From the NCBI RefSeq assembly GCF_003018255.1, contig NZ_CP027440.1: a DNA stretch of 64,000 bases; one strand, 5' to 3'. Origin of the DNA: Escherichia coli. Lineage in GTDB: Bacteria > Pseudomonadota > Gammaproteobacteria > Enterobacterales > Enterobacteriaceae. Positions 5,501 to 56,778 of the stretch are shown piece by piece. The stretch's first letter is position 1; every line of letters starts with the position of its first letter. Under the pieces are notes generated by a model. The model did no database searches and was not told where the DNA came from. It saw nothing but the letters and a program-made list of their open reading frames with translations. The position numbers and the translations under genes are program-made.

Positions 5501-7165
5501 TTATTTATATGCCGACTGGTGAACGCCAACCGCGCGACCAGACGGATCGTCCATTTTCTTGAACGCTTCATCCCACTCAATCGCTTTAGCGGAAGAACAA
5601 GCGACGGAAGGACCGCCCGGCACGCACTCAGCGGCGCTCGGAAGCGGGAACAATTCTTCAAAGATCTCCCGGTACAGATACGCTTCTTTTGAGGTCGGCG
5701 TGTTGTACGGGAAGCGGAAGCGGGCAGTTTCCAGCTGTTGATCAGACACCTGCTGCGCTGCCACTTCTTTCAGGGTGTCGATCCAACTGTAACCGACGCC
5801 ATCGGAGAACTGCTCTTTTTGCCGCCAGGCCACGCTTGCAGGCAGATACGCTTCAAAACATTCACGCAGGATGTGTTTTTCCATTTTGCCGTTACCGCAC
5901 ATTTTATCCTGTGGGTTAATGCGCATCGCCACATCAAGGAATTTTTTGTCGAGGAACGGAACGCGTGCTTCCACGCCCCAGGCTGACATCGCTTTGTTGG
6001 CACGCGCGCAGTCATACATATGCAGGGCCAGCAGTTTACGCACCGTCTCTTCATGCAACTCTTTAGCGTTCGGCGCTTTGTGGAAGTATAGATAACCGCC
6101 AAACACTTCGTCAGAACCTTCACCGGACAGCACCATTTTAATGCCCATCGCCTTGATCTTACGCGACATTAAATACATCGGTGTTGAAGCGCGAATAGTG
6201 GTCACATCATAAGTTTCGATGTGGTAAATCACGTCGCGGATGGCATCCAGACCTTCCTGTACAGTGAAGTGAATTTCGTGATGCACCGTGCCCAGATGGT
6301 TTGCCACTTCCTGGGCTGCTTTCAGATCCGGTGAGCCCGGCAGACCTACAGCAAAGGAGTGCAACTGCGGCCACCAGGCTTCAGAGCGTTCCTGATCTTC
6401 CACGCGACGGGCGGCGTATTTCTTGGTGATAGCGGAAATAATTGAGGAATCCAGACCACCAGAAAGCAGCACACCGTAAGGCACATCAGACATCAGATGG
6501 CTTTTAACGGAATCTTCCAGTGCCTGACGCAGCTCGTTTTTGTCGGTCACGTTATCTTTCACCGCATCGTAGTCGAACCAGTCGCGATGATAATAAGAAC
6601 GGATTTCGCCGTCCTGACTCCACAAATAGCTCCCCGCCGGAAACTCTTTAATCGTGCGGCAAACTGGCACGAGGGCTTTCATTTCTGAGGCCACATACAG
6701 CTGACCGTGTTCGTCATAGCCCATATACAGTGGGATGATCCCCAGATGGTCGCGACCAATCAGATATGCATCTTTTTCGCTGTCGTACAGGGCAAAGGCA
6801 AACATGCCCTGCAAGTCGTCGAGAAATTCCGGCCCTTTTTCCTGATACAGCGCGAGGATCACTTCACAGTCAGACCCGGTCTGGAACTGGTAACGATCGC
6901 CATATTCAGCGCGCAATGCCTGGTGGTTGTAGATTTCACCGTTTACTGCCAGCACATGAGTTTTTTGTTGGTTGTAGAGAGGTTGCGCCCCCGCGTTAAC
7001 GTCAACAATTGACAGACGTTCGTGGGCGAGGATGGCGTTATCGCTGGCATAAATACCGGACCAGTCCGGGCCACGATGACGCATCAGGCGTGACAGCTCG
7101 AGTGCTTTCTTACGCAGCTCAACTGCGTCTGTTTTGATATCGAATACGCCAAAAATTGAACACAT
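5501..7165 (-). CDS. asnB: Asparagine synthetase B (glutamine-hydrolysing)
   Basis: 554-aa ORF, MCSIFGVFDIKTDAVELRKKALELSRLMRHRGPDWSGIY N-terminus (Ntn amidotransferase Cys2). Confidence 0.95.
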   Translation of the reverse strand: MCSIFGVFDIKTDAVELRKKALELSRLMRHRGPDWSGIYASDNAILAHERLSIVDVNAGAQPLYNQQKTHVLAVNGEIYNHQALRAEYGDRYQFQTGSDCEVILALYQEKGPEFLDDLQGMFAFALYDSEKDAYLIGRDHLGIIPLYMGYDEHGQLYVASEMKALVPVCRTIKEFPAGSYLWSQDGEIRSYYHRDWFDYDAVKDNVTDKNELRQALEDSVKSHLMSDVPYGVLLSGGLDSSIISAITKKYAARRVEDQERSEAWWPQLHSFAVGLPGSPDLKAAQEVANHLGTVHHEIHFTVQEGLDAIRDVIYHIETYDVTTIRASTPMYLMSRKIKAMGIKMVLSGEGSDEVFGGYLYFHKAPNAKELHEETVRKLLALHMYDCARANKAMSAWGVEARVPFLDKKFLDVAMRINPQDKMCGNGKMEKHILRECFEAYLPASVAWRQKEQFSDGVGYSWIDTLKEVAAQQVSDQQLETARFRFPYNTPTSKEAYLYREIFEELFPLPSAAECVPGGPSVACSSAKAIEWDEAFKKMDDPSGRAVGVHQSAYK

Positions 7166-7420
7166 AACCTTCTCCGTTAACCTGGTGTTTACTGCGTGTT
7201 GTGTTTACTTGTTAAAAAAATGCCGCAAAGCAGCACGGTGCGCAAGCGATTTGGCAGTGGAAAAATAAAAAACGTAATGGCGATTGCTGATTGATGAAAA
7301 AGGGGAGGGCTTTTGGGTATATTTATTGATGGATCGATAATTTTTGACGGGTTTTATTGAATGGGGTGATTTTAATGATGGGTAAAAATAAGAAACCACG
7401 CCCTGAGGCGTGGTTGCTAT

Positions 7421-8173
7421 TCAGATAACGTCGATTTCAGCGACCGATGGGTAAATCCAACTTGGGCGGAACGGCATACTGTCGATATCGTCGAGTGACG
7501 AAACACCAGAAAGCACCAGAATCGTCTCCAGACCGGCCTGGAAGCCCGCCAGAATATCGGTACGCAAGTTATCGCCGACAATCACCGTTTCTTCCGAATG
7601 CGCCTGCATTTTGTTTAATGCCGCGCGGATGATCCACGGACTCGGCTTTCCAACATAGAACGGTTTGCGCCCGGAGATTTTCTCGATCCCTGCACACAAC
7701 GCGCCACAGGCGGGATAAAAACCGCGCCCGTGGGTGTCCGGGTTGGTGGCGATAAAGCGTGCGCCGTTAGCGACGAAATAGGCTGCTTTATGCATCATGT
7801 CCCAGTTGTAGGAACGCGTTTCGCCAACAATCACAAAATCAGGGTTCACATCGGTAATAGTGAAACCGGCTTTGTACAGTTCATGAATCAGTGCGCCTTC
7901 GCCCACCACATACGCTTTCTTGCCTTCCTGGCGACGCAGGAAATCGGCGGTCGCCATCGCGGAGGTATAAAACACGCTATCCGGTACATCGACACCGGCA
8001 GTGGCAAAGCGATTCGCCAGATCTTGCCCGGTCTGCGAAGGATAGTTGGTCAGCAACACCAGCGGCAGGCCTTTATCCATAATCCCGTGCAAAAATTCCG
8101 CTGCACCCGGTACGGCGACGTTATCGTGCATCAGCACGCCGTCGATATCGCAAATTACATTTTTAATGGTCAT
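7421..8173 (-). CDS. umpH: UMP phosphatase (HAD family, NagD)
   Basis: 250-aa ORF MTIKNVICDIDGVLMHDN... with the HAD DxDGV motif. Confidence 0.93.
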   Translation of the reverse strand: MTIKNVICDIDGVLMHDNVAVPGAAEFLHGIMDKGLPLVLLTNYPSQTGQDLANRFATAGVDVPDSVFYTSAMATADFLRRQEGKKAYVVGEGALIHELYKAGFTITDVNPDFVIVGETRSYNWDMMHKAAYFVANGARFIATNPDTHGRGFYPACGALCAGIEKISGRKPFYVGKPSPWIIRAALNKMQAHSEETVIVGDNLRTDILAGFQAGLETILVLSGVSSLDDIDSMPFRPSWIYPSVAEIDVI

Positions 8174-8220
8174 GGACTACCCAGAATATTGACAACAATA
8201 AGCGCCACTATAAAAGCACA

Positions 8221-9441
8221 TTAATTTTCCAGCAAATGCTGGAGCAAAATACCGTTGAGCATGGCGCGTTTTACCAGCGCAAAAGCGCCGATTGCTGAGC
8301 GGTGATCCAACTCAGAACGTACCACCGGTAGATTAGTACGAAACGCCTTCAGCGCCTGGGTATTAATGCAGCTTTCAATAGCAGGGAGCAGCACTTTATC
8401 GGCTTCGGTGATTTCTCCAGCAATAACAATTTTTTGCGGATTAAATAAGTTGATAGCAATGGCGATGGTTTTACCCAGATGACGACCGACATATTCAATC
8501 ACTTCCGAGGCCAGGCTATCGCCTTTGTTCGCGGCTTTGCAGATAGTTTTGATGGTGCAGTCGTCCAGTGGCACACGGCTCTGGTAGCCCTGCTTTAACA
8601 GATTCAACACCCGTTGTTCAATGGCAGCATTGGCGGCGATAGTTTCCAGGCAGCCAAAGTTGCCGCAGTGGCAGCGTTCACCCAGCGGTTCGACCTGAAT
8701 ATGGCCAATTTCACCGACGTTGCCGTTGCGCCCGATAAAAATTCGCCCGTTAGAGATAATCCCGGCCCCGGTTCCGCGATGGACACGCACCAGAATGGAG
8801 TCTTCGCAATCCTGACTTGCACCGAAGTAGTGCTCTGCCAGCGCCAGACTGCGGATATCGTGGCCGACAAAACAGGTCACTTTAAAACGCTCTTCCAGTG
8901 CTTCAACCAGCCCCCAGTTTTCTACCTGAATATGCGGCATGTAATGAATTTTGCCGCTGTCCGGGTCTACAAGCCCTGGCAGGATCACCGAAATCGCGAT
9001 CAGCTCGCGTAGCTTGCGCTGGTAGCTATCAATAAACTGAGCAATGGCATTCAGCAGGGCATGTTCCAGCGTCTGCTGGGTACGTTCCGGCAGCGGGTAA
9101 TGTTCTTCTGCCAGCACTTTGCTGCTGAGATCAAACAAGGTGATGGTGGCGTCGTGACGACCAAGCCGTACGCCGATTGCGTGGAAATTGCGGGTTTCGG
9201 TGACGATGGAGATAGCGCGGCGGCCCCCGGTGGAGGCCTGCTGATCAACTTCTTTGATCAGCCCGCGTTCGATAAGCTGACGCGTAATTTTGGTTACGCT
9301 GGCGGGGGCAAGCTGACTTTGCTCGGCAATCTGAATCCGCGAGATTGGCCCGTACTGGTCAATCAGGCGATAAACCGCCGCGCTGTTAAGCTGTTTTACG
9401 AGATCAACATTACCTATCTGAGCTTGTCCGCCTGGTGTCAT
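8221..9441 (-). CDS. nagC: N-acetylglucosamine repressor NagC (ROK family)
   Basis: 406-aa ORF MTPGGQAQIGNVDLVKQLNSAAVYRLIDQYGPISRIQIAEQS... Confidence 0.95.
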   Translation of the reverse strand: MTPGGQAQIGNVDLVKQLNSAAVYRLIDQYGPISRIQIAEQSQLAPASVTKITRQLIERGLIKEVDQQASTGGRRAISIVTETRNFHAIGVRLGRHDATITLFDLSSKVLAEEHYPLPERTQQTLEHALLNAIAQFIDSYQRKLRELIAISVILPGLVDPDSGKIHYMPHIQVENWGLVEALEERFKVTCFVGHDIRSLALAEHYFGASQDCEDSILVRVHRGTGAGIISNGRIFIGRNGNVGEIGHIQVEPLGERCHCGNFGCLETIAANAAIEQRVLNLLKQGYQSRVPLDDCTIKTICKAANKGDSLASEVIEYVGRHLGKTIAIAINLFNPQKIVIAGEITEADKVLLPAIESCINTQALKAFRTNLPVVRSELDHRSAIGAFALVKRAMLNGILLQHLLEN

Positions 9442-9449
9442 ACTTTCTC

Positions 9450-11458
<2,009 letters not shown>

Positions 11459-11614
11459 TATTCACCTCAATAAGTAAAATGTAAGCCGTTGGCGGATTAG
11501 GCATCTTTAAGCGTAACCTGGATTTGCGCAGACAGGCGTCAATCCGACCTGATTTTTTGAATGATAAAATAAGTTTTCTGGTTTAGCCAGTAAAAGGGAG
11601 TGATGATAACGATA

Positions 11615-11671
11615 TTTGGTGACAAAACTCACAAAAGACACGCGTTTAATTTGCGATACGAATTAAATTTT
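11615..11671. promoter_or_regulatory. nagE-nagBACD divergent control region: CRP-like site and NagC operator palindrome
   Basis: GGTGAcaaaacTCACA (about 11618..11633) fits TGTGA-N6-TCACA; TTTAATTTGCGATACGAATTAAATT (about 11645..11671) is a near-perfect palindrome of the kind NagC binds. Confidence 0.5.
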
Positions 11672-11790
11672 CACACACTCTGTAGCAGATGATCTAACAA
11701 TCTGATTACAGAACATCGGCAGTACAATTTGCAGCAAAATAAAAATACGGCTTTAAACGAGCCAAATAGGGTTCTCGTAGGGGGAATAAG

Positions 11791-13737
11791 ATGAATATTT
11801 TAGGTTTTTTCCAGCGACTAGGTAGGGCGTTACAGCTCCCTATCGCGGTGCTGCCGGTGGCGGCGCTGTTGCTGCGATTCGGTCAGCCAGATTTACTTAA
11901 CGTTGCGTTTATTGCCCAGGCGGGCGGTGCGATTTTTGATAACCTCGCATTAATCTTCGCCATCGGCGTGGCATCCAGCTGGTCGAAAGACAGCGCAGGT
12001 GCGGCGGCACTGGCGGGTGCGGTAGGTTACTTTGTGTTAACCAAAGCGATGGTGACCATCAACCCAGAAATTAACATGGGTGTACTGGCGGGTATCATTA
12101 CCGGTCTGGTCGGTGGTGCAGCCTATAACCGTTGGTCCGATATTAAACTGCCGGACTTCCTGAGCTTCTTCGGCGGCAAACGCTTTGTGCCGATTGCCAC
12201 CGGCTTCTTCTGCCTGGTGCTGGCGGCCATTTTTGGTTACGTCTGGCCGCCGGTACAGCACGCTATCCATGCAGGCGGCGAGTGGATCGTTTCTGCGGGC
12301 GCGCTGGGTTCCGGTATCTTTGGTTTCATCAACCGTCTGCTGATCCCAACCGGTCTGCATCAGGTACTGAACACCATCGCCTGGTTCCAGATTGGTGAAT
12401 TCACCAACGCGGCGGGTACGGTTTTCCACGGCGACATTAACCGCTTCTATGCCGGTGACGGCACCGCGGGGATGTTCATGTCCGGCTTCTTCCCGATCAT
12501 GATGTTCGGTCTGCCGGGTGCGGCGCTGGCGATGTACTTTGCAGCACCGAAAGAGCGTCGTCCGATGGTTGGCGGTATGCTGCTTTCTGTTGCTGTTACT
12601 GCGTTCCTGACCGGTGTGACTGAGCCGCTGGAATTCCTGTTCATGTTCCTTGCGCCGCTGCTGTACCTCCTGCACGCACTGCTGACCGGTATCAGCCTGT
12701 TTGTGGCAACGCTGCTGGGTATCCACGCGGGCTTCTCCTTCTCTGCGGGGGCTATCGACTACGCGTTGATGTATAACCTGCCGGCCGCCAGCCAGAACGT
12801 CTGGATGCTGCTGGTGATGGGTGTTGTCTTCTTCGCTATCTACTTCGTGGTGTTCAGTTTGGTTATCCGCATGTTCAACCTGAAAACGCCGGGCCGTGAA
12901 GATAAAGAAGACGAGATCGTTACTGAAGAAGCCAACAGCAACACGGAAGAAGGTCTCAATCAACTGGCAACCAACTATATTGCTGCGGTTGGCGGTACTG
13001 ACAACCTGAAAGCCATTGACGCCTGTATTACTCGTCTGCGCCTTACCGTGGTTGACTCAGCTCGCGTCAACGATGTGATGTGTAAACGTCTGGGGGCTTC
13101 TGGGGTAGTAAAACTGAACAAACAGACTATTCAGGTGATTGTGGGCGCGAAAGCAGAATCCATCGGCGATGCGATGAAGAAAGTCGTTGCCCGTGGTCCG
13201 GTAGCCGCTGCGTCAGCTGAAACTGCGCCTGCAACTGCCGCGCCTGTAGCAAAACCGCAGGCTGTACCAAACGCGGTGTCTATCGCGGAGCTGGTATCGC
13301 CGATTACCGGTGATGTTGTGGCACTGGATCAGGTTCCTGACGAAGCATTCGCCAGCAAAGCGGTGGGTGACGGTGTGGCGGTGAAACCGACAGATAAAAT
13401 CGTCGTATCACCAGCCGCAGGGACAATCGTGAAAATCTTCAACACCAACCACGCGTTCTGTCTGGAAACCGAAAAAGGCGCGGAGATCGTCGTCCATATG
13501 GGTATCGACACCGTAGCGCTGGAAGGTAAAGGCTTTAAACGTCTGGTGGAAGAGGGCGCGCAGGTAAGCGCAGGACAACCGATTCTGGAAATGGATCTGG
13601 ATTACCTGAACGCTAACGCCCGCTCGATGATTAGCCCGGTGGTTTGCAGCAATATCGACGATTTCAGCGGCCTGATCATTAAAGCTCAGGGCCATGTTGT
13701 GGCGGGTCAAACACCGCTGTATGAAATCAAAAAGTAA
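11791..13737 (+). CDS. nagE: PTS N-acetylglucosamine-specific EIICBA component
   Basis: 648-aa ORF, hydrophobic N-terminal EIIC region, then EIIB and EIIA (glucose-family) domains. Confidence 0.95.
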   Translation: MNILGFFQRLGRALQLPIAVLPVAALLLRFGQPDLLNVAFIAQAGGAIFDNLALIFAIGVASSWSKDSAGAAALAGAVGYFVLTKAMVTINPEINMGVLAGIITGLVGGAAYNRWSDIKLPDFLSFFGGKRFVPIATGFFCLVLAAIFGYVWPPVQHAIHAGGEWIVSAGALGSGIFGFINRLLIPTGLHQVLNTIAWFQIGEFTNAAGTVFHGDINRFYAGDGTAGMFMSGFFPIMMFGLPGAALAMYFAAPKERRPMVGGMLLSVAVTAFLTGVTEPLEFLFMFLAPLLYLLHALLTGISLFVATLLGIHAGFSFSAGAIDYALMYNLPAASQNVWMLLVMGVVFFAIYFVVFSLVIRMFNLKTPGREDKEDEIVTEEANSNTEEGLNQLATNYIAAVGGTDNLKAIDACITRLRLTVVDSARVNDVMCKRLGASGVVKLNKQTIQVIVGAKAESIGDAMKKVVARGPVAAASAETAPATAAPVAKPQAVPNAVSIAELVSPITGDVVALDQVPDEAFASKAVGDGVAVKPTDKIVVSPAAGTIVKIFNTNHAFCLETEKGAEIVVHMGIDTVALEGKGFKRLVEEGAQVSAGQPILEMDLDYLNANARSMISPVVCSNIDDFSGLIIKAQGHVVAGQTPLYEIKK

Positions 13738-13747
13738 TCTGCTTTAT

Positions 13748-13776
13748 GCCTGATGCGACGCTTGAGCGTCGCATCC
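13748..13776. repeat. REP-derived hairpin downstream of nagE
   Basis: gcctGATGCGACGCttgaGCGTCGCATC, a 10-bp stem whose left half matches the REP consensus start; a weak T-run follows near 13803..13811. Confidence 0.4.
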
Positions 13777-13939
13777 AACAATGACAAGCGGTGGAGATCT
13801 TCTCTGCCGCTTTTTTTTTCATCAATCATCCCCATAATCTCAGTGAGATTTTCGATTTTCACTAACTAACAGTTGTCAGCCTGTCCCGCTTATAAGATCA
13901 TACGCCGTTATACGTTGTTTACGCTTTGAGGAATCCACG

Positions 13940-15604
13940 ATGAGTGAGGCAGAAGCCCGCCCGACTAACTTTATTCGTCAGATCATCGATGAAGATCTGG
14001 CCAGTGGTAAGCACACCACAGTACACACCCGTTTCCCGCCGGAGCCGAATGGCTATCTGCATATTGGCCATGCGAAATCTATCTGCCTGAACTTCGGGAT
14101 CGCCCAGGACTATAAAGGCCAGTGCAACCTGCGTTTCGACGACACTAACCCGGTAAAAGAAGATATCGAGTATGTTGAGTCGATCAAAAACGACGTTGAG
14201 TGGTTAGGTTTTCACTGGTCTGGTAACGTCCGTTACTCCTCCGATTATTTTGATCAGCTCCACGCCTATGCGATCGAACTGATCAATAAAGGCCTGGCGT
14301 ACGTTGATGAACTGACACCGGAACAGATCCGCGAATACCGCGGCACCCTGACGCAGCCGGGTAAAAACAGCCCGTACCGCGACCGCAGCGTTGAAGAGAA
14401 CCTGGCGCTGTTCGAAAAAATGCGTACCGGTAGTTTTGAAGAAGGTAAAGCCTGCCTGCGTGCGAAAATCGACATGGCGTCGCCATTTATCGTAATGCGC
14501 GATCCGGTGCTGTACCGCATTAAATTTGCTGAACACCACCAGACTGGCAACAAGTGGTGCATCTACCCGATGTACGACTTCACCCACTGCATCAGCGATG
14601 CGCTGGAAGGTATTACGCACTCTCTGTGTACGCTTGAGTTCCAGGACAACCGCCGTCTGTACGACTGGGTACTGGACAACATCACCATTCCTGTTCACCC
14701 GCGCCAGTACGAATTCTCGCGCCTGAATCTGGAATACACTGTGATGTCCAAGCGTAAGCTGAACCTGCTGGTGACCGATAAGCACGTTGAAGGCTGGGAT
14801 GACCCGCGTATGCCGACCATTTCTGGTCTGCGTCGTCGTGGTTACACTGCGGCTTCTATTCGTGAGTTCTGCAAACGCATTGGTGTGACCAAGCAGGACA
14901 ACACCATTGAGATGGCGTCACTGGAATCCTGCATCCGTGAAGATCTCAACGAAAATGCCCCGCGCGCAATGGCGGTTATCGATCCGGTGAAACTGGTTAT
15001 CGAAAACTACCAGGGCGAAGGCGAAATGGTCACCATGCCGAACCATCCGAACAAACCGGAAATGGGTAGCCGTCAGGTGCCGTTTAGCTGTGAGATTTGG
15101 ATCGATCGCGCCGATTTCCGCGAAGAAGCTAACAAGCAGTACAAACGTCTGGTGTTGGGTAAAGAAGTGCGTCTGCGTAATGCTTACGTGATTAAGGCAG
15201 AACGCGTCGAGAAAGATGCCGAAGGTAATATCACCACCATCTTCTGTACTTATGACGCCGACACCTTAAGCAAAGATCCGGCAGATGGTCGTAAAGTGAA
15301 AGGTGTTATTCACTGGGTGAGCGCGGCACATGCGCTGCCGGTTGAAATCCGTTTGTATGACCGTCTGTTCAGCGTGCCTAACCCAGGTGCTGCGGATGAT
15401 TTCCTGTCGGTGATTAACCCGGAATCGCTGGTGATCAAACAGGGTTTCGCTGAACCGTCGCTGAAAGACGCGGTAGCGGGTAAAGCATTCCAGTTTGAGC
15501 GTGAAGGTTATTTCTGCCTCGACAGCCGCCATTCCACTGCCGAAAAACCGGTATTTAACCGCACCGTAGGGCTGCGTGATACCTGGGCGAAAGTAGGCGA
15601 GTAG
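13940..15604 (+). CDS. glnS: Glutaminyl-tRNA synthetase
   Basis: 554-aa [50 protein letters not shown] (HIGH motif). Confidence 0.96.
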
Positions 15605-15672
15605 TTTTAAGTTCTACCAGGCCGGGTGAGGCATTTACGCCACATCCGGCAAGAAATATGCAAACAATCCCA

Positions 15673-15700
15673 AACGCCGCGCTCTGCGGCGTTTTTTTTC
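15673..15700 (+). terminator. glnS rho-independent terminator
   Basis: CGCCGC-gctct-GCGGCG hairpin followed by T8. Confidence 0.65.
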
Positions 15701-16053
15701 TGCTTTTCTTCGCGAATTAATTCCGCTTCGCAATTTATCCATAAAACAAATTTAAAATCACAAACCATAATTAAATAAAATGTAACCGTTTTCATCTTAC
15801 TGGAAATTCACGCTTTTATTCTTCTGCAAGCCTTTCAACTGCAAACTTAAGCCTTGTAACAAAAATCATCAAAATATGTGCGGTTGCTCATGTTCTTACA
15901 TTCTGGTTACAGAAAGAGATTGATAATTCGCGTCGCGAAAAATAGTCTGTTCCTGTAGTCAGCGAGACTTTTCTCAACGCTACTTTTTTAATTTTTATTT
16001 TTTTCGCTGTTCACCTTTGGTGCAGCAATTTATACGTCAAAGAGGATTAACCC

Positions 16054-17460
16054 ATGCGTACGTTTAGTGGCAAACGTAGTACGCTGGCGCTGGCTATCGC
16101 CGGTGTTACAGCAATGTCGGGCTTTATGGCAATGCCGGAGGCTCGCGCCGAAGGATTCATCGACGATTCAACCTTAACCGGCGGTATCTATTACTGGCAG
16201 CGTGAACGCGACCGTAAAGATGTTACCGACGGCGACAAATACAAAACCAACCTTTCTCACTCCACCTGGAATGCCAACCTCGATTTTCAGTCCGGTTATG
16301 CTGCTGATATGTTCGGCCTTGATATTGCTGCGTTTACGGCGATTGAAATGGCGGAAAACGGTGACAGCTCTCACCCGAACGAAATCGCGTTTTCAAAAAG
16401 CAATAAAGCCTATGACGAAGACTGGTCCGGCGACAAAAGCGGTATAAGCCTGTATAAAGCAGCGGCCAAATTTAAATACGGTCCGGTGTGGGCGAGGGCA
16501 GGTTACATTCAGCCAACTGGTCAGACGCTGTTAGCGCCGCACTGGAGCTTTATGCCGGGTACTTATCAGGGGGCGGAAGCCGGGGCGAATTTTGATTACG
16601 GCGATGCTGGTGCGTTGAGTTTCTCCTACATGTGGACCAACGAATACAAAGCACCGTGGCATCTCGAAATGGATGAGTTTTATCAGAACGATAAAACTAC
16701 CAAAGTTGATTATCTGCACTCCATCGGTGCGAAGTACGACTTCAAAAATAACTTTGTACTGGAAGCGGCATTTGGTCAGGCGGAAGGGTATATAGATCAA
16801 TATTTTGCCAAAGCCAGCTACAAATTTGATATCGCCGGTAGCCCGTTAACCACCAGCTACCAGTTCTACGGTACGCGCGATAAAGTTGACGATCGCAGCG
16901 TCAACGACATTTACGACGGCACTGCCTGGCTGCAAGCGTTGACCTTTGGTTACCGGGCGGCTGATGTAGTGGATTTGCGTCTGGAAGGCACCTGGGTTAA
17001 AGCCGACGGTCAGCAGGGATACTTCCTGCAACGTATGACTCCAACCTACGCTTCCTCGAACGGTCGCCTGGATATCTGGTGGGATAACCGTTCTGACTTC
17101 AACGCCAACGGCGAAAAAGCGGTCTTCTTCGGTGCGATGTATGACCTGAAAAACTGGAATCTTCCAGGCTTCGCCATCGGCGCTTCCTACGTTTACGCAT
17201 GGGATGCTAAACCTGCGACCTGGCAGAGCAATCCGGATGCGTACTACGACAAAAACCGGACTATTGAAGAGTCTGCCTACAGCCTGGATGCGGTGTACAC
17301 CATTCAGGACGGTCGCGCCAAAGGCACGATGTTCAAACTGCACTTCACCGAATACGACAACCACTCCGACATCCCAAGCTGGGGCGGCGGTTACGGTAAC
17401 ATCTTCCAGGATGAGCGCGACGTGAAATTTATGGTAATCGCACCATTCACCATCTTCTGA
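16054..17460 (+). CDS. chiP: Chitoporin (OprD-family outer membrane porin)
   Basis: 468-aa ORF with signal peptide [32 protein letters not shown] and C-terminal aromatic residue. Confidence 0.93.
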
Positions 17461-17836: not shown

Positions 17837-17876
17837 GTGAGAGCTGTAACTCTCGCTTTTCTTATTTCCCTTGTAT

Positions 17877-17906
17877 AAAAAAGCCAACCTGCAGGTTGGC
17901 TTTTCT
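17877..17906. terminator. Bidirectional terminator between chiQ (+) and fur (-)
   Basis: A6, GCCAACC-tgca-GGTTGGC hairpin, then T4. Confidence 0.7.
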
Positions 17907-55680: not shown

Positions 55681-56388
55681 TTAAGGTCTCCTTAGCGCCT
55701 TATTGCGTAAGACTGCCGGAACTTAAATTTGCCTTCGCACATCAACCTGGCTTTACCCGTTTGTTATTTGGCTCGCCGCTCTGTGAAAGAGGGGAAAACC
55801 TGGGTACAGAGCTCTGGGCGCTTGCAGGTAAAGGATCCATTGATGACGAATAAATGGCGAATCAAGTACTTAGCAATCCGAATTATTAAACTTGTCTACC
55901 ACTAATAACTGTCCCGAATGAATTGGTCAATACTTCCACACTGTTACATAAGTTAATCTTAGGTGAAATACCGACTTCATAACTTTTACGCATTATATGC
56001 TTTTCCTGGTAATGTTTGTAACAACTTTGTTGAATGATTGTCAAATTAGATGATTAAAAATTAAATAAATGTTGTTATCGTGACCTGGATCACTGTTCAG
56101 GATAAAACCCGACAAACTATATGTAGGTTAATTGTAATGATTTTGTGAACGGCCTATACTGCCGCCAGGTCTCCGGAACACCCTGCAATCCCGAGCCACC
56201 CAGCGTTGTAACGTGTCGTTTTCGCATCTGGAAGCAGTGTTTTGCATGACGCGCAGTTATAGAAAGGACGCTGTCTGACCCGCAAGCAGACCGGAGGAAG
56301 GAAATCCCGACGTCTCCAGGTAACAGAAAGTTAACCTCTGTGCCCGTAGTCCCCAGGGAATAATAAGAACAGCATGTGGGCGTTATTC
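55681..56388. promoter_or_regulatory. gltA-sdhC divergent intergenic control region
   Basis: 708-bp AT-rich spacer between divergent TCA-cycle operons; it holds the divergent promoters and, from the literature, the sdhC leader targeted by small RNAs. Individual sites were not resolved. Confidence 0.5.
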
Positions 56389-56778
56389 ATGATAAGAAAT
56401 GTGAAAAAACAAAGACCTGTTAATCTGGACCTACAGACCATCCGGTTCCCCATCACGGCGATAGCGTCCATTCTCCATCGCGTTTCCGGTGTGATCACCT
56501 TTGTTGCAGTGGGCATCCTGCTGTGGCTTCTGGGTACCAGCCTCTCTTCCCCTGAAGGTTTCGAGCAAGCTTCCGCGATTATGGGCAGCTTCTTCGTCAA
56601 ATTTATCATGTGGGGCATCCTTACCGCTCTGGCGTATCACGTCGTCGTAGGTATTCGCCACATGATGATGGATTTTGGCTATCTGGAAGAAACATTCGAA
56701 GCGGGTAAACGCTCCGCCAAAATATCCTTTGTTATTACTGTCGTGCTTTCACTTCTCGCAGGAGTCCTCGTATGGTAA
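56389..56778 (+). CDS. sdhC: Succinate dehydrogenase cytochrome b556 subunit
   Basis: Track ORF 56374..56778 trimmed to the ATG at 56389: [34 protein letters not shown]..., 129 aa. Confidence 0.92.

Follow-up and report, generated by a model that had tools for sequence, protein, structure and literature searches.

What controls the two divergent transcription units nagE and nagBACD from the 332 bp that lie between them, and are the palindromes visible in this spacer those of the system already described in Escherichia coli? The window examined here, meaning the whole 64,000-nucleotide stretch of E. coli DNA that was analysed, almost certainly carries the canonical E. coli nagE-nagBACD control region, with a NagC loop and activation by CRP. 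This control region is already known, and our analysis is the correct re-identification of an ordinary, explained system; nothing that we found contradicts the canonical model. In K-12, the nagE-nagBACD control region was reportedly described by Plumbridge and Kolb, with its NagC operators BoxE and BoxB, a CAP site and a DNA loop.

The spacer occupies positions 11459-11790 and is divergent according to the open reading frame (ORF) table, direct reading and the RefSeq annotation of identical DNA. An earlier inspection of the letters alone (the sequence-only reading) had placed a 332-bp spacer between divergent nagE and nagBACD, and both its coordinates and its gene identities were borne out by ORFs, NCBIfam and RefSeq. 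The genes surrounding the spacer are listed below.

Positions 5501-7165, minus strand: asnB (ORF table and NCBIfam).
Positions 7421-8173, minus strand: nagD (ORF table and NCBIfam equivalog match).
Positions 8221-9441, minus strand: nagC, the repressor for both operators (NF047937 TransRegNagC equivalog, 719 bits).
Positions 9450-10598, minus strand: nagA, GlcNAc-6-phosphate deacetylase (NF008371 equivalog, 744 bits).
Positions 10658-11458, minus strand: nagB, glucosamine-6-phosphate deaminase (NF001685 equivalog, 627 bits; RefSeq annotation).
Positions 11791-13737, plus strand: nagE, PTS GlcNAc transporter IIABC (NF007608 equivalog, 1446 bits; RefSeq annotation).
Positions 13940-15604, plus strand: glnS (ORF table and NCBIfam).

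Gene boundaries in the window agree with the RefSeq annotation of identical DNA. A 451-bp region spanning the spacer matches many complete E. coli chromosomes, annotated with nagB and nagE on its two sides, at 100% identity, and was found in 5424 of 5426 genomes; the spacer itself has a G+C content of 38%, compared with 52% for the whole window. The locus shares with the K-12 nagE-nagBACD region both NagC operators and the CRP 22-mer, each identical to the published sequences, as well as the 332-bp spacer length and the positions of the sites relative to the genes. The single difference seen is a strain-level SNP at position 11605 (G in the window, A in the K-12 RegulonDB string), which lies outside every site. 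Downstream of nagE, strain-level differences in gene content were also observed: E. coli 536 has an identical nag spacer and carries a six-gene island downstream of nagE (9826-15658 of its locus), including genes for an SLC13 permease and a sialidase-family protein, whereas in the window nagE is directly followed by glnS, with 13738-13939 between them.

Two NagC operators were located in the spacer, both by exact match to published sequences.

Positions 11551-11573, minus strand: BoxB, the nagB NagC operator, CTTATTTTATCATTCAAAAAATC (exact match, FITBAR Table 1, PMC3098098).
Positions 11645-11667, no strand assigned: BoxE, the nagE NagC operator, TTTAATTTGCGATACGAATTAAA (exact match, FITBAR Table 1, PMC3098098).

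The long palindrome that had been proposed as a NagC operator, TTTAATTTGCGATACGAATTAAATT at 11645-11669, contains the published 23-bp nagE operator base for base, the true palindrome within it being TTTAATT-N9-AATTAAA at 11645-11667. The accompanying claim of a NagC operator architecture holds for this nagE operator and is incomplete in that it overlooked the stronger nagB operator at 11551-11573, and looping with it. The NagC site is a quasi-palindrome of 23 bp in which TT/AA at positions +/-5,6 is invariant and C/G occupies +/-11 where affinity is high (PMC4288165). In the wild-type nagE operator positions +/-11 are A/T, and NagC does not regulate a fusion that carries only this operator; its repression depends on binding in cooperation with the strong operator of nagB via a DNA loop (PMC4288165). 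Likewise, nagE-B is counted among the operons that require two NagC sites and looping, and the nagE-nagB region has served as the positive control for NagC in footprints and EMSA (PMC5401889). In the window, BoxE and BoxB (minus strand) both carry T6 T7 and A17 A18, as the invariant TT/AA rule demands. BoxB has the C/G signature of the high-affinity type at +/-11 (C..C, minus strand), and BoxE has A/T (T..A), which departs from the high-affinity signature and fits the published status of this operator as weak, hybrid and loop-dependent.

Scores from a NagC matrix built on 7 published FITBAR operators, all outside the window, and applied to 63,978 positions placed BoxE second (18.65 bits) and BoxB third (15.4 bits). 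Among 2000 random 332-bp spacers of the same composition, only 0.2% reached the score of BoxE and 1.6% that of BoxB, and a perfect 7-N9-7 palindrome occurred in 2.9% of random spacers. The arms of the NagC palindrome, at 7 nt, escaped a repeat search with a minimum length of 8, whose sole return was an unrelated imperfect palindrome at 11629-11656; direct search confirmed the NagC palindrome.

The first rank with the NagC matrix (21.8 bits) went to an exact copy of the published chiP/ybfM operator, GATAATTCGCGTCGCGAAAAATA, at 15922-15944, approximately 110 bp upstream of the chiP ORF (16054-17460). Three further matches were judged to be probably chance: 56381-56403 at the start of the sdhC ORF (15.1 bits), 17861-17883 between chiQ and fur (14.2 bits) and 11456-11478 over the nagB start codon (11.3 bits). 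To our knowledge, none of these three is a published NagC site.

Between the two operators lies a site for cAMP-CRP, and a second CRP entry overlaps BoxE.

Positions 11615-11636, centre 11625.5, no strand assigned: cAMP-CRP site TTTGGTGACAAAACTCACAAAA (RegulonDB; Genomic SELEX, PMC3105977 supplements).
Positions 11649-11670, no strand assigned: second CRP entry ATTTGCGATACGAATTAAATTT (RegulonDB nagE -27.5, nagB -104.5), overlapping BoxE.

The core GGTGACAAAACTCACA (GGTGA-N6-TCACA, 11618-11633) had been called CRP-like, and it proved to be that of the RegulonDB CRP site, which also appears in Genomic SELEX; 9 of 10 core positions match TGTGA-N6-TCACA, with the key G4 and C13 present. RegulonDB places TTTGGTGACAAAACTCACAAAA at -61.5 for nagE and -70.5 for nagBACD and labels it 'dual' (via PMC3105977 supplements), and the Genomic SELEX table lists the same CRP box as TTTGGTGACAAAACTCACAAAA (Shimada 2011, PMC3105977 supplements). 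Both distances are appropriate for class I activation, given that the positions are those of RegulonDB and the start sites were back-calculated from them.

With a CRP matrix trained on 45 RegulonDB sites, all from outside nag, 11615-11636 scored 13.25 bits and ranked third in the window, against a training-site median of 10.8, and 1.45% of composition-matched random spacers reached the same score. The second entry, ATTTGCGATACGAATTAAATTT at 11649-11670, scored 13.6 bits and ranked second. The first rank fell to the gltA/sdhC CRP site TATCGTGACCTGGATCACTGTT at 56076-56097, but this site belongs to the training set. A search for the bare TGTGA-N6-TCACA core with at most one mismatch across the 64 kb returned 1 match against 1.7 expected, which is not significant, and position-specific matrices and conservation were used for this reason. 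The matrix scan and the comparison with published sites, both of which the sequence-only reading had put forward as checks, thus came out in its favour: the elements rank within the top three of approximately 64,000 positions, and both NagC operators and the CRP 22-mer match published sites exactly.

The start sites of nagE and nagB were back-calculated from the RegulonDB CRP positions (-61.5 and -70.5), and the promoter hexamers were read from the sequence.

Positions 11651-11687, plus strand: nagE promoter, with -35 TTGCGA at 11651-11656, a 17-bp spacer, -10 CACACT at 11674-11679 and +1 at 11687.
Positions 11555-11589, minus strand: nagB promoter, with -35 TGGCTA at 11589 to 11584, -10 TATCAT at 11566 to 11561 and +1 at 11555.

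The -35 and -10 hexamers of both genes lie at distances consistent with CRP at -61.5 and -70.5, and the two calculated start sites are 132 bp apart. Relative to the start sites calculated from the RegulonDB CRP positions, BoxB spans -18 to +5 at the nagB promoter, and BoxE spans -42 to -20 at the nagE promoter. A generic sigma-70 consensus scan detected neither the nagE nor the nagB promoter, as expected because both are weak and CRP-dependent; the one match that it flagged overlaps the nagB start codon and is no more than the chance expectation.

To follow these elements across species, a degenerate DNA pattern covering residues 8-22 of NagE was used, which recovered 67 loci in a species-representative genome collection, from Enterobacteriaceae together with Rahnella, Ewingella, Rouxiella and one Serratia-like genome. 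A complete divergent nagB-nagE spacer was present in 64 of the 67 (Enterobacteriaceae and Yersiniaceae), giving 65 sequences when compared with E. coli. Spacer length in the 64 other species ranged from 312 to 501 bp, identity to E. coli had a median of 0.67 and a minimum of 0.49, and leader lengths took 23 distinct values on the nagB side and 24 on the nagE side. The two highest-scoring NagC matches keep a distance of exactly 94 bp in every one of the 65 sequences, and the CRP centre is likewise fixed at 63.5 bp from BoxB and 30.5 bp from BoxE. With a helical repeat of 10.5 bp, these distances amount to 8.95 (94 bp), 6.05 (63.5 bp) and 2.90 (30.5 bp) helical turns, which would place the proteins bound at BoxB, BoxE and the CRP site all on one face of the helix.

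Mean conservation was highest in the spacer at BoxB (0.98), followed by BoxE (0.95) and the CRP 22-mer (0.86), with the rest of the spacer at 0.56-0.71; both Shine-Dalgarno regions are also conserved in the alignment. Within the CRP 22-mer both 8-nt half-sites are approximately 100% conserved and the central N6 is variable. The right core TCACA is present in 65/65 sequences and the left core is GGTGA in 63 and AGTGA in two (two Salmonella subspecies), the consensus TGTGA occurring in none of the 65, so that a slightly sub-optimal CRP half-site appears to be maintained. Among the promoter hexamers, the nagE -35 is conserved in 64/65 and CACACT at its fixed position in 43/65, with a highly conserved ACACT core in the alignment, and the nagB hexamers TATCAT and TGGCTA are kept in 52/65 and 49/65, respectively. 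The outer positions of the operators are fixed as well: BoxB ends in C/G at +/-11 (G..G) and BoxE in A/T, each in 65/65. Conservation thus extends to the weakness of the nagE operator, which suggests that the dependence of this operator on looping is under selection.

The site over the nagE -35 deserves closer scrutiny, as 11645-11670 could be read mainly as an Mlc operator or a second CRP site rather than a NagC operator. Its A/T at +/-11 is an Mlc-type signature and it has been termed a hybrid Mlc/NagC site (PMC4288165), and it is overlapped by the RegulonDB CRP entry at nagE -27.5 with a CRP-matrix score of 13.6 bits. This entry scores at least 10 bits in 51 of the 65 species, a conservation that is inseparable from that of BoxE; its score drops to 8-11 bits in many species, whereas the NagC score stays at 16-19. 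Furthermore, NagC preferentially regulates the nagE operator when the nagB operator is present, and Mlc cross-regulation does not occur at physiological protein levels (PMC4288165). The fixed 94-bp phasing of BoxE and BoxB in 65/65 sequences is explained by NagC-NagC looping, and we regard an operator devoted mainly to Mlc or CRP as very improbable.

Slightly less probable again is that the single NagC palindrome at 11645-11667 and the CRP site make up the whole switch, a view implied by the sequence-only reading, to which the palindrome lends itself as the best NagC match in the spacer (18.65 bits) and by its overlap with the nagE -35. Repression requires the nagB operator and looping (PMC4288165), so the cited literature refutes a switch of this kind, and BoxB is present, the most conserved element of the spacer (0.98) and an invariant 94 bp from BoxE. 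An origin of the motifs by chance, in a spacer rich in A and T, has a next to negligible probability: the spacer is 38% G+C, one would expect 1.7 copies of the CRP core pattern per 64 kb and 7-N9-7 palindromes arise in 2.9% of random spacers, but the motifs match experimentally defined sites exactly, take top-three ranks with independent matrices and stand out across 65 species as nearly invariant islands at fixed distances from one another, with flanks that diverge to 49-67% identity, and conservation together with identity to published sites refutes a chance origin.

The canonical reading, a NagC loop enclosing a CRP site, has its case in the position of the sites within the spacer, their conservation across species and the published data. 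The identity of the sites, their matrix scores, their positions relative to the promoters, their conservation and their invariant spacing come from our own analysis, and NagC and CRP binding, looping, induction by GlcNAc-6-P and CRP activation rest on the literature. According to the model, two weak divergent sigma-70 promoters would serve nagB and nagE. Without GlcNAc-6-P, NagC would occupy the strong BoxB over the nagB -10/+1 and the weak BoxE over the nagE -35, and NagC-NagC interaction would form a loop from the 94 bp (approximately 9 helical turns) that separate the centres of the operators, silencing the nagB and nagE promoters simultaneously. One cAMP-CRP dimer would be bound inside this loop, approximately 6 turns from BoxB and 3 from BoxE and on the same face. 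From this same-face geometry and the 'dual' label in RegulonDB, we infer that the CRP bend inside the loop may assist loop closure. GlcNAc-6-P would then free NagC, and CRP would activate both promoters from its class-I-type positions at -61.5 and -70.5.

Short repression loops are also known from the gal (GalR-HU) and deoP2/cdd (CytR-CRP) systems, where a cooperative repressor acts over approximately 90-115 bp and a protein that bends DNA sits between the operators or next to them. The nagE-nagB region differs from these in that the bending protein, cAMP-CRP, doubles as activator of both promoters, and a direct contact between NagC and CRP is not claimed. Among NagC-controlled loci, glmUS, chbBCARFG, fimB and manXYZ resemble nagE-nagB in having the same type of 23-bp NagC operator with TT/AA at +/-5,6 (PMC5401889, PMC3098098) and in needing cooperative binding to two separated sites (PMC5401889). 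What sets the nagE-nagB loop apart from the other NagC loops is its short length (94 bp), the CRP site within it and the joint silencing of two divergent promoters, and at glmU, unlike at nagE-nagB, NagC additionally activates transcription.

Outside the operators, the transcribed parts of the locus also carry conserved features. With the calculated start site, the nagB 5'UTR is 97 nt long (11555 to 11459) and contains a conserved block ACGGATTG (+9..+16) that can pair with a second one, AATCCGCC (approximately +60); a further block, TACGCTTA at 11509-11518, is unpaired and conserved without explanation. RNAalifold predicted a 5-bp stem for the nagB 5'UTR, with compensatory changes in three pairs, and its energy of -1.78 kcal/mol is too weak for a claim of a structured element. 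An Rfam scan of 7000-16500 (E<=1) returned nothing within the nagB-nagE spacer. Just 3' of glnS, at 15620-15700, the Rfam model naRNA4 (REP-derived) gave a match of 28.8 bits, below the gathering score of 59.5, and this stretch is probably a REP/BIME element.

Inside the operon, two junctions were examined, which the sequence-only reading had taken together as signs of tight packing.

Positions 9442-9449, 8 nt, minus strand: nagA-nagC junction, TAA GAGAAAGT ATG (direct reading; ORF and annotation coordinates).
Positions 10614-10647, minus strand: terminator-like hairpin, with the stem-loop TGCCCTGGCTCCTTGCTCAGGGCA from 10647 to 10624 followed by ATATTTTTTA from 10623 to 10614 (terminator scan).

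The nagA-nagC junction is genuinely tight, and its earlier length of 9 nt is corrected to the 8 nt given by the sequence. The nagB-nagA spacer was rightly placed at 10599-10657 (59 nt) with its GC-rich string GAGCAAGGAGCCAGGGCAGGG (10630-10650), but there is more to it than tight packing, since on the transcribed strand this string forms one side of a stem-loop. This hairpin has an 8-pair stem with 5 G-C pairs and is followed by a T-run, the sequence make-up of an intrinsic terminator, and its minimum free energy is -17.8 kcal/mol (z = -2.8), with none of 200 shuffles folding as well. Klebsiella, Enterobacter, Citrobacter, Kluyvera and Salmonella have a different stem sequence and keep a GC-rich hairpin with a T-run in the same position, with a conserved GGGGGT ribosome-binding site of nagA 3' of it; in a few lineages the spacer measures 21-26 nt and is without the hairpin. 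A search of the accessible literature for a nagB-nagA terminator found nothing. On this sequence evidence, the hairpin may be a partial intrinsic terminator or an RNA stabiliser inside the nagBACD operon. A wider proposal, in which the hairpin would set the ratio of NagB to NagA/NagC/NagD by partial termination or stabilisation and the nagB 5'UTR blocks ACGGATTG...AATCCGCC and TACGCTTA would act as a regulatory RNA element or factor binding site, together forming a post-transcriptional layer, appears rather unlikely.

Because the system is so well characterised, our analysis carries little weight as a discovery. The annotation of the window gains the nagB operator, two promoters, the 8-nt junction and the intra-operon hairpin. 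The nagE-nagBACD region is one of the best-characterised cases of DNA-looping repression combined with CRP activation at divergent promoters, and the comparative data back the published looping model, with the 94-bp spacing and the CRP position invariant while spacer length is free to vary.
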